Of a stretch of 64,000 bases of DNA, positions 1 through 56,460 are shown piece after piece. The translations under genes and the position numbers were made by a program. A model generated the notes under the pieces. It was not told the origin of the DNA. It searched no databases and saw only the letters and a program-made list of their open reading frames with translations. Location of the stretch: assembly GCF_988243305.1 (NCBI RefSeq), contig NZ_OZ547136.1; one strand, given 5' to 3'. Position 1 is the first letter of the stretch; every line of letters starts with the position of its first letter.

Positions 1-1763
1 TTGCCCGTTGGTTTTGTGAAGGCCGAACCAACTTGTGTCACAACGCTATCGACCGCTGGCTGGAGAAACAGCCAGAGGCGCTGGCGCTGATTGCCGTCTC
101 TTCGGAAACAGAAGAAGAGCGCACCTTTACCTTTCGTCAGCTGCATGACGAAGTGAACGCGGTGGCCTCAATGTTGCGTTCATTGGGCGTGCAGCGTGGC
201 GATCGGGTGCTGGTGTATATGCCGATGATTGCCGAAGCGCATATTACTCTGCTGGCCTGCGCGCGCATTGGCGCTATTCACTCGGTGGTGTTTGGTGGAT
301 TTGCCTCGCACAGCGTGGCGGCGCGAATTGATGATGCTAAACCGGTGCTAATTGTCTCGGCTGATGCCGGAGCGCGCGGTGGCAAAATCATTCCCTATAA
401 AAAATTACTCGACGATGCGATAAGTCAGGCGCAGCACCAGCCACGCCATGTTTTGCTGGTGGATCGCGGGCTGGCGAAAATGGCACGCGTCAGCGGGCGG
501 GATGTCGATTTCGCGTCGTTGCGCCATCAACACATCGGCGCGCGGGTACCGGTGGCGTGGCTGGAATCCAACGAAACCTCCTGCATTCTCTACACTTCCG
601 GCACGACCGGCAAACCTAAAGGCGTGCAGCGTGACGTCGGCGGATATGCGGTGGCGCTGGCGACCTCGATGGACACTATTTTTGGCGGCAAAGCGGGCGG
701 TGTGTTCTTTTGTGCTTCGGATATCGGCTGGGTGGTGGGGCATTCGTATATCGTCTACGCGCCGCTGCTGGCGGGGATGGCGACTATCGTTTACGAAGGA
801 TTGCCGACCTGGCCGGACTGCGGCGTGTGGTGGAAAATCGTCGAGAAATATCAGGTGAGCCGAATGTTCTCAGCGCCAACCGCCATTCGCGTGCTGAAAA
901 AATTCCCTACCGCCGAAATTCGCAAACACGATCTCTCGTCGCTGGAAGTGCTCTATCTGGCGGGGGAGCCGCTGGACGAGCCGACCGCCAGTTGGGTGAG
1001 CAATACGCTGGATGTGCCGGTCATCGACAACTACTGGCAGACCGAATCCGGCTGGCCGATTATGGCGATTGCTCGCGGTCTGGACGACAGGCCGACGCGT
1101 CTGGGAAGCCCCGGCGTGCCGATGTATGGCTATAACGTGCAGTTGCTTAATGAAGTCACCGGCGAACCGTGTGGCGTCAACGAGAAAGGGATGCTGGTGG
1201 TGGAAGGGCCGCTGCCGCCGGGGTGTATTCAGACCATCTGGGGCGACGACGACCGCTTTGTGAAGACGTACTGGTCGCTGTTTTCCCGCCCGGTGTACGC
1301 CACCTTTGACTGGGGCATCCGTGACGCTGACGGTTATCACTTTATTCTCGGGCGCACTGACGATGTAATTAACGTTGCCGGGCATCGGCTGGGGACGCGC
1401 GAGATTGAAGAGAGTATCTCCAGTCATCCGGGCGTTGCCGAAGTGGCGGTGGTTGGGGTGAAAGATGCGCTGAAAGGGCAGGTGGCGGTGGCGTTTGTCA
1501 TTCCGAAAGAGAGCGACAGTCTGGAAGACCGAGACGTGGCGCACTCGCAAGAGAAGGCGATTATGGCGCTGGTGGACAGCCAGATTGGCAACTTTGGTCG
1601 CCCGGCGCACGTCTGGTTTGTCTCGCAATTGCCGAAAACGCGATCCGGAAAAATGCTGCGCCGCACGATCCAGGCAATTTGCGAAGGACGCGATCCTGGG
1701 GATCTGACGACCATTGATGATCCTGCGTCATTGGATCAGATCCGCCAGGCGATGGAAGAGTAA
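1..1763 (+). CDS. prpE: Propionyl-CoA synthetase (acyl-CoA synthetase family), 5'-truncated by window edge
   Basis: ORF track 33..1763 with open frame extending to the window start; AMP-binding motifs (TSGTTGKPKG); stop TAA at 1761-1763; synteny upstream of codBA. Confidence 0.9.
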   Translation, partial: ARWFCEGRTNLCHNAIDRWLEKQPEALALIAVSSETEEERTFTFRQLHDEVNAVASMLRSLGVQRGDRVLVYMPMIAEAHITLLACARIGAIHSVVFGGFASHSVAARIDDAKPVLIVSADAGARGGKIIPYKKLLDDAISQAQHQPRHVLLVDRGLAKMARVSGRDVDFASLRHQHIGARVPVAWLESNETSCILYTSGTTGKPKGVQRDVGGYAVALATSMDTIFGGKAGGVFFCASDIGWVVGHSYIVYAPLLAGMATIVYEGLPTWPDCGVWWKIVEKYQVSRMFSAPTAIRVLKKFPTAEIRKHDLSSLEVLYLAGEPLDEPTASWVSNTLDVPVIDNYWQTESGWPIMAIARGLDDRPTRLGSPGVPMYGYNVQLLNEVTGEPCGVNEKGMLVVEGPLPPGCIQTIWGDDDRFVKTYWSLFSRPVYATFDWGIRDADGYHFILGRTDDVINVAGHRLGTREIEESISSHPGVAEVAVVGVKDALKGQVAVAFVIPKESDSLEDRDVAHSQEKAIMALVDSQIGNFGRPAHVWFVSQLPKTRSGKMLRRTIQAICEGRDPGDLTTIDDPASLDQIRQAMEE

Positions 1764-1768
1764 GGTAT

Positions 1769-1798
1769 TGTCGGATGCGTCGCGTGGCGCATCCGACA
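1769..1798. repeat. REP-like palindromic element (TGTCGGATGCG...CGCATCCGACA)
   Basis: Inverted repeat read directly in the prpE 3' intergenic region. Confidence 0.6.
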
Positions 1799-1810
1799 CC
1801 ATGCGCCGAT

Positions 1811-3065
<1,255 letters not shown>

Positions 3066-3066
3066 C

Positions 3067-3125
<59 letters not shown>

Positions 3126-3202
3126 CCACTACCCACTGTTTTTACACCGATAATTTTTCCCCCACCTTTTTGCACTCATTCATATAAAAAATATATTTCC
3201 CC

Positions 3203-3218
3203 ACGAAAACGATTGCTT
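3203..3218. promoter_or_regulatory. Putative PurR box upstream of codB (ACGAAAACGATTGCTT)
   Basis: Resembles the PUR operator consensus; codBA is a known PurR-regulated operon. Confidence 0.4.
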
Positions 3219-3284
3219 TTTATCTTCAGATGAATAGAATGCGGCGGATTTTTTGGGTTTCAAACAGCAAAAAGGGGGAATTTC

Positions 3285-4544
3285 GTGTCGCAAGATAACA
3301 ACTTTAGCCAGGGGCCAGTCCCGCAGTCGGCGCGGAAAGGGGTATTGGCATTGACGTTCGTCATGCTGGGATTAACCTTCTTTTCCGCCAGTATGTGGAC
3401 CGGCGGCACTCTCGGAACCGGTCTTAGCTATCATGATTTCTTCCTCGCAGTCCTCATCGGTAATCTTCTCCTCGGTATTTACACTTCATTTCTTGGTTAC
3501 ATTGGCGCAAAAACCGGCCTGACCACTCATCTTCTTGCTCGCTTCTCTTTTGGTGTTAAAGGCTCATGGCTGCCTTCACTGCTGCTGGGCGGCACCCAGG
3601 TTGGCTGGTTTGGCGTTGGCGTGGCGATGTTTGCCATTCCGGTGGGCAAGGCAACTGGGCTGGATATTAATTTGCTGATTGCCGTTTCCGGTTTACTGAT
3701 GACCGTCACCGTCTTCTTTGGCATTTCGGCGCTAACGGTTCTTTCGGTGATTGCAGTTCCGGCTATCGCCTGTCTTGGCGGTTATTCCGTGTGGTTGGCC
3801 GTTAACGGCATGGGCGGCCTGGACGCATTAAAAGCGGTCGTTCCCGCACAACCGTTAGATTTCAATGTCGCGCTGGCGCTGGTTGTGGGGTCATTTATCA
3901 GTGCGGGCACGCTCACCGCTGACTTTGTCCGGTTTGGTCGTAATGCCAAACTGGCGGTGCTAGTGGCGATGGTGGCCTTTTTCCTCGGCAACTCGTTGAT
4001 GTTTATTTTCGGTGCAGCGGGCGCGGCGGCACTGGGGATGGCGGATATCTCTGATGTGATGATTGCTCAGGGTCTGCTGCTGCCTGCGATTGTGGTGCTG
4101 GGGCTGAATATCTGGACCACCAACGATAACGCACTTTATGCGTCGGGTTTAGGTTTCGCCAACATTACCGGTATGTCGAGTAAAACCCTTTCGGTGATTA
4201 ACGGTATTATCGGTACGGTCTGCGCATTATGGTTGTATAACAATTTTGTCGGCTGGCTGACCTTCCTTTCGGCAGCTATTCCTCCGGTAGGGGGCGTGAT
4301 CATCGCTGACTATCTGATGAACCGTCGCCGCTATGAGCACTTTGCGACCACGCGTATGATGAGTGTCAATTGGGTGGCGATTCTGGCGGTCGCCTTGGGG
4401 ATTGCCGCAGGCCACTGGTTACCGGGAATTGTTCCGGTCAACGCGGTATTAGGTGGCGCGCTGAGCTATCTGATCCTTAACCCGATTTTGAATCGCAAAA
4501 CGACGGCTGCAATGACGCATGTGGAGGCTAACAGTGTCGAATAA
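3285..4544 (+). CDS. codB: Cytosine permease
   Basis: 419-aa polytopic membrane protein matching CodB; GTG start with AAAGGGGG Shine-Dalgarno; followed by codA with an 11-bp overlap. Confidence 0.95.
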
Positions 4545-21919: not shown

Positions 21920-21923
<4 letters not shown>

Positions 21924-22933
21924 ACGGTAAAAAACTTTATATCTCGGACGTCACGTTGCGTGACGGTATGCACGCCATTCGTCATCAGTATTCGCTGGAA
22001 AACGTTCGCCAGATTGCCAAAGCACTGGATGATGCCCGCGTGGATTCGATTGAAGTGGCCCACGGCGACGGTTTGCAGGGTTCCAGCTTTAACTATGGTT
22101 TCGGCGCACATAGCGACCTTGAATGGATTGAAGCGGCGGCGGATGTGGTGAAGCACGCCAAAATCGCGACGTTGTTGCTGCCAGGAATCGGCACTATTCA
22201 CGATTTGAAAAATGCCTGGCAGGCTGGCGCGCGGGTGGTTCGTGTGGCAACGCACTGTACCGAAGCCGATGTTTCCGCCCAGCATATTCAGTATGCCCGC
22301 GAGCTCGGAATGGACACCGTTGGTTTTCTGATGATGAGCCATATGACCACGCCGGAGAATCTCGCAAAGCAGGCAAAGCTGATGGAAGGCTACGGTGCGA
22401 CCTGTATTTATGTGGTGGATTCTGGCGGTGCGATGAACATGAGCGATATCCGTGACCGTTTCCGCGCCCTGAAAGCAGTGCTGAAACCAGAAACGCAAAC
22501 CGGCATGCACGCTCACCATAACCTGAGTCTTGGCGTGGCGAACTCTATCGCGGCGGTGGAAGAGGGCTGCGACCGAATCGATGCCAGCCTCGCGGGAATG
22601 GGGGCGGGCGCAGGTAACGCGCCGCTGGAAGTGTTTATTGCCGCCGCGGATAAACTGGGTTGGCAGCATGGGACCGATCTCTATGCGTTAATGGATGCCG
22701 CTGACGACCTGGTGCGTCCGTTGCAGGATCGACCGGTACGAGTCGATCGCGAAACGCTGGCGCTGGGATACGCTGGTGTTTACTCGAGCTTACTGCGTCA
22801 CTGTGAAACGGCGGCGGCGCGTTATGGCTTAAGCGCGGTGGATATTCTCGTTGAGCTGGGCAAACGCCGGATGGTTGGCGGCCAGGAGGATATGATCGTC
22901 GACGTGGCGCTGGATCTGCGCAACAACAAATAA
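21920..22933 (+). CDS. mhpE: 4-hydroxy-2-oxovalerate aldolase
   Basis: 337-aa ORF. Confidence 0.95.
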
Positions 22934-22981
22934 TGATGACTGCCGAGAACGTGCATTTTGTATGCCCATCCCAGCACGACT

Positions 22982-23015
22982 GCCGGATGCGGCGTAAACG
23001 CCTTGTTCGGCCTAC
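22982..23015. repeat. REP element after mhpE (GCCGGATGCGGCGTAAACGCCTTGTTCGGCCTAC)
   Basis: Canonical REP palindrome. Confidence 0.6.
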
Positions 23016-23112
23016 ATTTTCTTCGCCTGTAGGCAGTCATTAAATGGTTCTGATTACGCGGCTGGCAATGTATCAGCCGCGATTCACCTGCACTCGCAAC
23101 GAGGTTCATCTT

Positions 23113-24324
23113 ATGTCGACTCGTCCCCCTTCATCATCTTCATCCCGCCTGATGCTGACCATCGGGCTTTGTTTTTTGGTCGCTCTGATGGAAGGACTGG
23201 ATCTTCAGGCGGCTGGCATTGCGGCGGGTGGCATCGCCCAGGCTTTCGCACTCGATAAAATGCAAATGGGCTGGATATTCAGCGCCGGAATACTCGGTTT
23301 GCTACCCGGCGCGCTGGGTGGCGGAATGCTGGCGGACCGTTATGGTCGTAAGCGTATTTTAATTAGCTCAGTTGCGCTGTTTGGTTTGTTCTCACTGGCA
23401 ACGGCGATTGCCTGGGATTTCCCTTCACTGGTCTTTGCGCGGCTGATGACCGGTGTCGGGCTGGGGGCGGCGTTGCCGAATCTTATCGCCCTGACGTCTG
23501 AAGCCGCAGGGCCACGTTTTCGTGGGACGGCAGTGAGCCTGATGTATTGCGGTGTTCCTATTGGCGCGGCGCTGGCGGCGACACTGGGTTTCGCGGGGGC
23601 AAACTTAGCATGGCAAACGGTGTTTTGGGTCGGTGGTGTGGTGCCGTTGATTCTGGTGCCGCTATTAATGCGCTGGCTGCCGGAGTCGGCGGTATTCGCT
23701 GGCGAAAAACAGGCCGCGCCTCCACTGCGTGCGTTATTTGCGCCAGAAACGGCAACCGCGACGCTGCTGCTGTGGTTGTGTTATTTCTTCACTCTGCTGG
23801 TGGTCTACATGTTGATCAACTGGCTGCCGCTGCTTTTGGTGGAGCAAGGATTCCAGCCATCGCAGGCGGCAGGGGTGATGTTTGCACTGCAAATGGGGGC
23901 GGCAAGCGGGACGTTAATGTTGGGCGCATTGATGGATAAGCTGCGTCCAGTAACCATGTCGCTACTGATTTATAGCGGCATGTTAGCTTCGCTGCTGGCG
24001 CTGGGAACAGTGTCGTCATTTAACGGTATGCTGCTGGCGGGATTCGTCGCGGGGTTGTTTGCGACAGGTGGGCAAAGCGTTTTGTATGCCCTGGCACCGT
24101 TGTTTTACAGTTCGCAGATCCGCGCAACAGGTGTGGGAACAGCCGTGGCGGTAGGGCGTCTGGGGGCTATGAGCGGTCCGTTACTGGCCGGGAAAATGCT
24201 GGCATTAGGCACTGGCACGGTCGGCGTAATGGCCGCTTCTGCACCGGGTATTCTTGTTGCTGGGTTGGCGGTGTTTATTTTGATGAGTCGGAGATCACGA
24301 ATGCAGCCGTGTGCCGATGCCTGA
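23113..24324 (+). CDS. mhpT: 3-hydroxyphenylpropionate MFS transporter
   Basis: ORF track 23044..24324; conserved start MSTRPPSSSSSRLMLTIG gives 403 aa. Confidence 0.9.
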   Translation: MSTRPPSSSSSRLMLTIGLCFLVALMEGLDLQAAGIAAGGIAQAFALDKMQMGWIFSAGILGLLPGALGGGMLADRYGRKRILISSVALFGLFSLATAIAWDFPSLVFARLMTGVGLGAALPNLIALTSEAAGPRFRGTAVSLMYCGVPIGAALAATLGFAGANLAWQTVFWVGGVVPLILVPLLMRWLPESAVFAGEKQAAPPLRALFAPETATATLLLWLCYFFTLLVVYMLINWLPLLLVEQGFQPSQAAGVMFALQMGAASGTLMLGALMDKLRPVTMSLLIYSGMLASLLALGTVSSFNGMLLAGFVAGLFATGGQSVLYALAPLFYSSQIRATGVGTAVAVGRLGAMSGPLLAGKMLALGTGTVGVMAASAPGILVAGLAVFILMSRRSRMQPCADA

Positions 24325-24988: not shown

Positions 24989-25025
24989 GCCTGATGCGAC
25001 GCTTTGCGCGTCTTATCAGGCCTAT
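24989..25025. repeat. REP element (first of a pair) ending ATCAGGCCTAT
   Basis: GCCTGATGCGACGCTTTGCGCGTCTTATCAGGCCTAT. Confidence 0.65.
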
Positions 25026-25041
25026 GGTTTATGGGCGAAGT

Positions 25042-25076
25042 GTAGGCCGGATAAGGCGTTCACGCCGCATCCGGCA
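25042..25076. repeat. REP element (second of a pair, inverted relative to the first)
   Basis: GTAGGCCGGATAAGGCGTTCACGCCGCATCCGGCA. Confidence 0.65.
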
Positions 25077-56374: not shown

Positions 56375-56411
56375 GCCTGATGCGACGCTTGCCGCGTCTT
56401 ATCAGGCCTAC
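56375..56411. repeat. REP element ending with ATCAGGCCTAC
   Basis: GCCTGATGCGACGCTTGCCGCGTCTTATCAGGCCTAC. Confidence 0.65.
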
Positions 56412-56425
56412 AAAATGAGCAGCCC

Positions 56426-56460
56426 GTAGGCCGGATAAGGCGTTCACGCCGCATCCGGCA
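56426..56460. repeat. REP element (inverted partner)
   Basis: GTAGGCCGGATAAGGCGTTCACGCCGCATCCGGCA. Confidence 0.65.

Follow-up and report, generated by a model that had tools for sequence, protein, structure and literature searches.

The mhpE-mhpT junction

The window (64 kb, the whole stretch of DNA that was analyzed) contains mhpE, encoding a 4-hydroxy-2-oxovalerate aldolase (21920-22933, + strand), followed by mhpT, encoding a 3-(3-hydroxyphenyl)propionate transporter of 403 aa (23113-24324, + strand). Both genes were delimited from the list of open reading frames, and their identities agree with the RefSeq annotation at near-identical E. coli loci (97-99% identity). The mhpE stop codon TAA (22931-22933) and the mhpT ATG at 23113 are separated by a spacer of 179 nt; the sequence at the end of mhpE reads AAA TAA TGATGACTGCCGAG, and that preceding mhpT includes CCTGTAGGCAGTCATTAAATGG.

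An intact Y-type REP occupies 22982-23015 (GCCGGATGCGGCGTAAACGCCTTGTTCGGCCTAC), precisely where the original prediction had placed it. Its GTAG 5' end is on the minus strand, and the plus strand is read tail first and ends in CCTAC. The sequence matches the Y consensus TGCCGGATGCGGCGTAAACGCCTTATCCGGCCTAC (PMC11208160) at all but 2 nt and forms an imperfect palindrome with a GTAG/CTAC head. Like other Y REPs it is a palindrome of ~35 nt that lies outside genes (here in the mhpE-mhpT spacer) and recurs many times in the genome: a query containing the REP had matches at 22 places in the median E. coli genome, and there are 8 REP cores in the 64-kb window. No Rfam family other than the REP-derived naRNA4 matched, and naRNA4 itself gave a partial, sub-threshold match to the REP on the minus strand (32.5 bits, E = 2e-4 to 7.5e-4), which falls below the gathering score because the model spans two REPs.

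The REP is part of a 117-nt block (22934-23050) that is present in E. coli and missing in Citrobacter and Pluralibacter, and that holds both arms of the inverted repeat considered below, the REP, and flanks that appear to be REP-derived. Immediately upstream of the REP lies the end of a tail-to-tail linker (22978-22981, + strand, CGAC context), which together with the REP tail TGCC makes up a GACTGCC 7-mer at 22978-22984; the same junction, GCACGAC/TGCCGGATG, is found upstream of every Y REP in the multi-unit alleles described below. On the other side, a head-to-head linker (ATTTTCTTCGCC, 23016-23027, + strand) has 4 nt more than the ATTTCGCC found in most E. coli. It is followed by TGTAGGC (23028-23034, + strand), which resembles the head (GTAG plus GC) of a truncated or collapsed inverted REP (REP-head match, p about 0.05) and forms a 7-bp hairpin with GCCTACA at 23010-23016.

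Other REPs in the window include a head-to-head Z2 plus Y BIME just downstream of mhpT (24989-25075), in which the linker ACTTCGCCCATAAACC resembles the right flank of the REP studied here; the A(C/T)TTCGCCC linker after the Y REP of that BIME is similar to the linker at 23016-23027. Another Z2 plus Y pair occupies 56375-56459. Isolated REP-like cores occur at 1811, 54385 (- strand) and 12508; at the last of these the REP-like sequence does not continue, and the short pattern may have matched by chance.

Several further features of the spacer were noted. The mhpE TAA is followed in frame by TGA TGA (22931-22939), giving three stop codons in a row whose bases are part of the left arm; in about one third of E. 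coli this triple stop is replaced by TAA TAT TGA. A 36-codon open reading frame (22933-23043, + strand), whose ATG overlaps the mhpE stop and which ends in TAA, matches the extent of the bracketed segment almost exactly. It was rejected as a gene, as ATATTG alleles do not have this ATG and BIME units break or fill the frame in other strains. A 'hypothetical protein' is annotated within the mhpE-mhpT spacer of two genomes with K-12-type alleles (H50, H166).

A promoter and terminator scan of 22700-23300 found neither in the spacer. In particular, the search for an intrinsic terminator (GC-rich hairpin plus T run) found none in 22934-23112, and the sole match lies inside mhpT at 23147-23167 (+ strand; GCCTGATGCTGACCATCGGGC TTTGTTTTTT), within the first 20 codons of that gene. 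This terminator-like sequence is partly kept in Citrobacter (CGCCTGACGTTGACCGTCGGGCTGTGTTTTTT), and with one such site found against 0.6 expected in shuffles it may be due to chance. A separate hairpin at 23058-23080 (stem 23058-23065/23073-23080, loop CAATGTA) lies 33-55 nt upstream of the mhpT start codon and is common to Escherichia, Citrobacter, Pseudocitrobacter, Kluyvera (in two copies) and Pluralibacter, with 98.6% of cells paired and compensatory changes in 4 of 8 pairs, a result matched by 0 or 1 of 500 shuffles. Its loop, GCAAYGTAY, is nearly invariant. Lacking a T run, the hairpin does not qualify as an intrinsic terminator; it may regulate mhpT expression, either as an RNA structure or as a palindrome to which a protein binds. 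The sequence TGGCAATGTATCAGC has GG-N10-GC spacing and thus a loose resemblance to a sigma-54 promoter.

An inverted repeat around the REP

The original prediction described the REP as bracketed by a 9-bp inverted repeat. A repeat finder recovers this repeat as a perfect one, with the left arm ATGACTGCC at 22936-22944 and the right arm GGCAGTCAT at 23032-23040 (both as read on the + strand), and 87 nt between them. The two 11-nt strings that had been named as flanking the REP are also present: TGATGACTGCC lies at 22934-22944 as given, while GGCAGTCATTA lies at 23032-23042, one position away from the predicted 23031-23041. In this 11-nt version the arms are complementary at 10 of 11 positions as DNA, and as RNA they form 11 pairs including one G-U.

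Such a bracket could have arisen by chance, from unique sequences on either side of a REP that have nothing to do with each other. When the 60-nt flanks of the REP were shuffled, 1.1% of the shuffles had a perfect inverted repeat of ≥9 bp between them, and with 8 REPs in the window a single bracketed REP at that local probability is unsurprising. Seeds of inverted 9-mers with a gap of ≤150 nt number 102 in the 64-kb window, against 48 ± 8 in random sequence of the same composition, and since such seeds are common in the window the 9-bp repeat alone is unremarkable after multiple testing.

Against coincidence stands the sequence of the arms themselves. The 7-mer next to the REP is repeated in direct orientation as the core of the left arm, GACTGCC (22938-22944), and the GGCAGTC of the right arm is the reverse complement of the same linker-plus-REP-tail 7-mer. 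GACTGCC thus occurs three times in 101 nt, in the left arm (+ strand), next to the REP (22978-22984, + strand) and in the right arm (- strand). Its total in the 64-kb window is 8, as expected in random sequence, and 3 of these 8 copies fall within the 101 nt. A copy of GACTGCC on each side of the REP was obtained in 3e-5 of flank shuffles, in a post hoc test that was chosen after the data had been seen. The clustering of GACTGCC is non-random and ties the arms to REP-associated sequence.

The flanks as probable remnants of REPs

The sequence between the left arm and the REP also bears on the origin of the arms. When the 40-nt left flank (22938-22977, + strand) was aligned with the K-12 BIME unit at a low cost for long gaps, it scored 43.1, against 26.9 ± 4.6 for shuffled sequences, and the score was equalled in 3 of 2,000 shuffles. 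The flank retains GACTGCCG, GAACG, TTTGTA(T/G)GCC and CATC..GCAC, with both REP interiors gone, and in the RNA fold it pairs with the 5' half of the REP, as expected of an inverted REP remnant. In a plain local alignment of the left flank with the REP consensus, the 8-mer GACTGCCG alone stands out (p about 0.03), and no extended similarity of the flanks to the Y and Z2 consensus sequences rises above chance, the matches being just 7-8-mers (p 0.03-0.05). In the right flank, the REP head TGTAGGC (23028-23034) and GGCAGTC (23032-23038) share 3 nt, as they would if a deletion between the GGC repeats at the base of the stem had removed the interior of a head-first REP.

From these similarities we infer that both flanks are collapsed REPs, a post hoc reading that needs long gaps in the alignment. 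The similarity of the left flank to a BIME unit links the arms to REP/BIME material rather than to unrelated DNA, which, together with the recurrence of the REP-abutting 7-mer, leaves coincidence a rather improbable explanation of the bracket.

Read as the remains of a BIME, the plus strand would consist of a collapsed BIME unit (22938-22977), the Y REP with its linker (22978-23015), the head-to-head linker (23016-23027) and the stump of an inverted REP (GTAGGC, then A-GTC). The leftmost piece would then start with the linker GAC and the REP tail TGCC, and the rightmost piece would end in the reverse complement of these, GGCA plus GTC. The ends of the arms would be mutually reverse-complementary because REPs in a BIME alternate in orientation. 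On this model the REP tail and 3 nt of tail-to-tail linker would cover 7 of the 9 paired bases, and the leftover AT/AT, being self-complementary, would most simply be due to chance, at a factor of just 1/16. BIME architecture does not account for these outermost AT/AT pairs, nor for the lengthening of the repeat to an RNA stem of 11 pairs. We consider it likely that the bracket represents the outward-facing ends of a REP/BIME cluster and not the termini of a separate element.

Variation of the array among strains

The mhpE-mhpT spacer is polymorphic in length in E. coli, with a BIME-2-type tandem array between fixed arms. Alleles of 173, 175 or 179 nt carry one REP (this window, O157:H7, ST131), and longer ones carry 2 Y and 1 inverted Z2 REPs (274 nt; M18, O111), 3 Y and 2 Z2 (377 nt; XH993, strain 203740), 4 Y and 3 Z2 (476 nt; 95-3192), 4 Y and 4 Z2 by pattern counts (546 nt; KE58), or 5 Y and 4 Z2 (577 nt; K-12). 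In multi-unit arrays a Y REP is followed by a linker of ~17 nt, an inverted Z2 REP and a linker of ~12 nt, giving a repeat unit of ~100 bp (GAC-TGCC..Y REP..CCTAC, GGATGGCGCGAGAATTT, GTAGGCC..Z2 REP..CAGGCA, TCTGCGCAC). In a spread sample of 58 genomes out of the 4,826 that carry both gene ends, single-REP alleles account for 33 (one of 173 nt, 25 of 175 nt and seven of 179 nt), the others being of 274 nt (5 genomes), 375-377 nt (6), 546 nt (1) and 577 nt, the K-12 type (13).

Base-by-base reading of 16 E. coli alleles placed the two arms outside the variable array in every one. No change was seen in the right arm of any of the 16, and 1-2 substitutions occur just after it. The left arm reads ATGATGACTGCC in 11 alleles and ATATTGACTGCC in the other 5, and the left flank is otherwise the same apart from 1-3 substitutions. 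A 60-mer containing the left arm of the window was found exactly in 3,059 of 4,881 records and with 1-3 nt different in 1,821 of them. The common left-arm variant costs the perfect repeat one of its 9 bp, leaving 8, and the right arm does not change to match, as might be expected if the complementarity of the arms were coincidental.

These alleles show that the alternative raised in the original prediction of a larger composite palindromic unit was essentially right, in that the block consists of REP/BIME material and other strains have a BIME-2-type array between the same arms. In those strains the interior has grown to as many as 5 Y and 4 Z2 REPs, in steps of ~100 bp and with the edges fixed, probably by unequal recombination, slippage or strand transfer by TnpA(REP). 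The latter enzyme cleaves the C|T dinucleotide next to REPs and can join BIME units in vitro (PMC3333891, PMC8266576). TnpA(REP) is a plausible engine of copy-number change at this locus, beside ordinary unequal recombination.

In one strain, E. coli STW0522-31 (NZ_AP022409.1), the spacer contains IS621 (2701-4253; transposase 2909-3889), a member of the IS110 family with a bridge-RNA recombinase. It sits in an inverted Z2 REP at GTAG|GCCTGAT, and both arms of the bracket remain. This insertion point corresponds to a known natural target of IS621, ATCAGGCCTAC (PMC11208160).

A more divergent allele was found in 'E. coli' SCPM-O-B-8794 (NZ_JAATUR010000022.1, 3515-4196; hereafter L008), a GTDB species representative whose mhpE is 95% identical to that of the window. 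Its spacer of 682 nt has six Z2 plus Y units with a different short head-to-head linker (ATTGGCCC). The left arm has diverged (GTTGATTGCAG), and the right edge (GTAGGCCTGTATCAGTTTCAGTCAT) is a longer REP remnant where E. coli has TGTAGGC. Between GTAGGC and AGTCAT there are 13 nt more in L008 than in E. coli, a difference that may reflect loss in E. coli or gain in L008. The L008-type right flank was found in no RefSeq complete E. coli genome (best match 90%, in two pieces), and L008 therefore probably belongs to a cryptic Escherichia clade. Complementarity between its arms is down to about 6 of 9 positions and they are no longer predicted to pair, which again would be in keeping with coincidence.

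Empty sites and other genera

The original prediction had also offered the bracket as the footprint of a small non-autonomous element. Stated fully, the arms would be the terminal inverted repeats of a MITE-like transposon that brought the REP to the mhpE-mhpT junction and made a short target duplication. We searched for its empty site with two artificial 100-nt junction sequences, one lacking the whole bracket and one lacking just the REP, at E ≤ 1e-18, a threshold that excludes 50-nt half matches. Neither had a match in 5,426 complete E. coli genomes. No spacer shorter than 173 nt was present among the sampled genomes (the 58-genome sample and the 16 alleles that were read). The flanks without the REP belong to no repeat family, with a median of 1 and a maximum of 2 places per genome (blastn, E ≤ 10). 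The comparison across strains that had been proposed, in which an invariant segment without empty-site alleles was to count against such an element, therefore came out in two ways: there are no empty-site alleles in E. coli, but the segment varies, with 1-5 Y REPs and one IS621 insertion.

Other genera provide the observations that favour a MITE-like origin. Outgroups were taken from a scan of species-representative genomes with MhpE, in which the best 80 matches were listed, one Escherichia locus among them. They included Citrobacter sp. FP75 and C. werkmanii, with 86-87% DNA identity to the window in mhpE. After the mhpE stop both have AAA(A), and next comes TGATTA(C/T)GCGGCTGG, which corresponds to the window from 23051 onwards; the longer read is TGATTA(C/T)GCGGCTGGCAA(C/T)GTATCAGCCGCG. 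The Pluralibacter spacer is equally short, and Pseudocitrobacter and Kluyvera have unrelated hairpins at this position (among the matches listed). Citrobacter and Pluralibacter thus have none of 22934-23050, and the limits of the missing block lie close to the arms, 2 nt to the left of the left arm and 10 nt to the right of the right arm. The block is flanked by a direct repeat matching at 6 of 7 positions, TGATGAC (22934-22940) and TGATTAC (23051-23057).

The absence of the whole block in Citrobacter and Pluralibacter suggests an old insertion in the Escherichia lineage, and 22934-23050 is probably such a lineage-specific insertion, with edges that are not placeable to the nucleotide. The REP-derived block probably entered the Escherichia lineage once. 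The TGATGAC/TGATTAC pair could equally be a target duplication, the scar of a deletion in Citrobacter or a chance match, and the same pattern would result if the Citrobacter lineage had lost the segment by deletion between short direct repeats. The candidate target duplications (AT/AT, TAA/TAA and TGATGAC/TGATTAC) are mutually exclusive, and each is weak and compatible with chance. As for the terminal inverted repeats that mark a MITE, the 9-bp repeat lies inside the limits of the block, and the REP tail and linker account for 7 of its 9 bp. REP and BIME sequences are thought to spread via a single-strand HUH mechanism, which is not known to make either terminal inverted repeats or target duplications. 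With an interior of REP/BIME material, single-copy non-REP parts and no empty site in 5,426 E. coli genomes, an origin of the bracket as the ends of a MITE-like transposon is very unlikely.

Predicted RNA structure

The arms may instead have been selected as RNA, the 11-pair stem beginning 1 nt after the mhpE stop and closing the REP block into a compound hairpin on the mhp mRNA that would tune mhpE termination, the stability of the mRNA 3' end or read-through to mhpT. Folding predictions agree with such a stem: the minimum free energy is -40.9 kcal/mol (z-score -2.9) with the arms paired, the predicted arm pairing is 0.96-1.00 in all 8 E. coli alleles folded (with one to five Y REPs), and it stays at 0.97-0.98 for the window's allele when 10 to 200 nt are added on each side. 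The invariance of the right arm in 16 alleles is compatible with selection, and Liang, Rudd and Deutscher are said to have reported in 2015 that REPs near stop codons stall ribosomes.

Strong predicted folds are, on the other hand, a generic outcome of GC-rich palindromic repeats. The arms are conserved no more than the adjacent spacer, the common arm variant reduces the perfect repeat to 8 bp, and there are no compensatory changes, in a species whose divergence is too low for covariation to show. In L008 the predicted pairing falls to a probability of 0.02, and other genera have no equivalent stem (among the matches listed). While the arms are predicted to close the block into one large stem, there is no sign of selection for that stem, and we hold a selected RNA structure to be a highly improbable reason for the repeat.

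A further reading starts from the sequence of the arm ends. Since the arms read 5'-ATGAC|TGCC on both strands, each of them carries the C|T dinucleotide cleaved by TnpA(REP). The ATGAC/TGCC arms could be the preserved ends of the original BIME insertion in a short ancestral spacer, or, in a related version, the outer stem could have been selected for bringing structured RNA to the terminating ribosome; either is improbable. If the arms were preserved BIME ends, the locus would offer a natural pair of filled and empty sites showing how a REP or BIME enters a new locus, and the ancestral short spacer would resemble the state in Citrobacter and Pluralibacter.

Function and significance

Intercistronic REPs and BIMEs serve in protection of transcript 3' ends or in attenuation between an operon and the gene downstream of it. 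By analogy, we infer that the block acts like other intercistronic REPs, by protecting the 3' end of the mhp transcript or by attenuation between mhpE and mhpT. Nothing points to a role of the bracket itself.

REP/BIME clusters, their alternating architecture and the variation of their copy number among strains have been known in E. coli for decades, and a finding of this already known kind matters little in itself. It does hold a lesson for sequence scanning: when an inverted repeat brackets a REP, the REP tail plus linker and the multi-unit alleles of other strains should be checked before a mobile element is proposed. The series of states at this locus, empty in Citrobacter and Pluralibacter, with 1-5 Y REPs in E. 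coli and disrupted by IS621, may also be useful for studies of the growth and shrinkage of BIMEs.

Comparison with known elements

The block resembles a MITE in being short and non-coding, in having a terminal-looking inverted repeat and in that the orthologous site is empty in other genera. It differs from a MITE in its REP/BIME interior and in belonging to no repeat family; the species lacks empty sites, and there is no clear-cut target duplication.

REPINs (REP doublet hairpins mobilised by RAYT/TnpA(REP); Bertels and Rainey) are another comparison. As in a REPIN, inverted REP-derived sequence can be folded into a long hairpin, and the C|T cleaved by TnpA(REP) is present in GAC|TGCC on both strands (PMC3333891, PMC8266576). 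In contrast to a REPIN, the block has one intact REP instead of two, its flanks are single-copy, and there is no sign of mobility among the 5,426 genomes.

The REP at 22982-23015 is the same in every respect as the Y REP of E. coli, whereas the bracket lies outside the definition of a REP. The locus as a whole resembles the BIME-2 and atypical BIME arrays (Gilson, Bachellier, Hofnung; Ton-Hoang et al. 2012, PMC3333891), in which y and z2 REPs are repeated in tandem, with strains differing in how many copies they have at a locus. Strain-variable tandem copy number at one locus is just what is found between mhpE and mhpT (1-5 Y REPs). Alternating Y and Z2 REPs are not seen at this locus in the window, where there are one intact REP, a decayed unit and the stump of a REP head, but they are present at the same locus in M18, O111, XH993, 95-3192 and K-12. 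Compared with BIME-2, the window has here a minimal allele with a single intact REP between decayed pieces, and the head-to-head linker at the right edge of the array (ATTTCGCC) is unlike the internal one (GGATGGCGCGAGAATTT). The locus is an ordinary REP/BIME in its minimal allele and a feature of a known kind.
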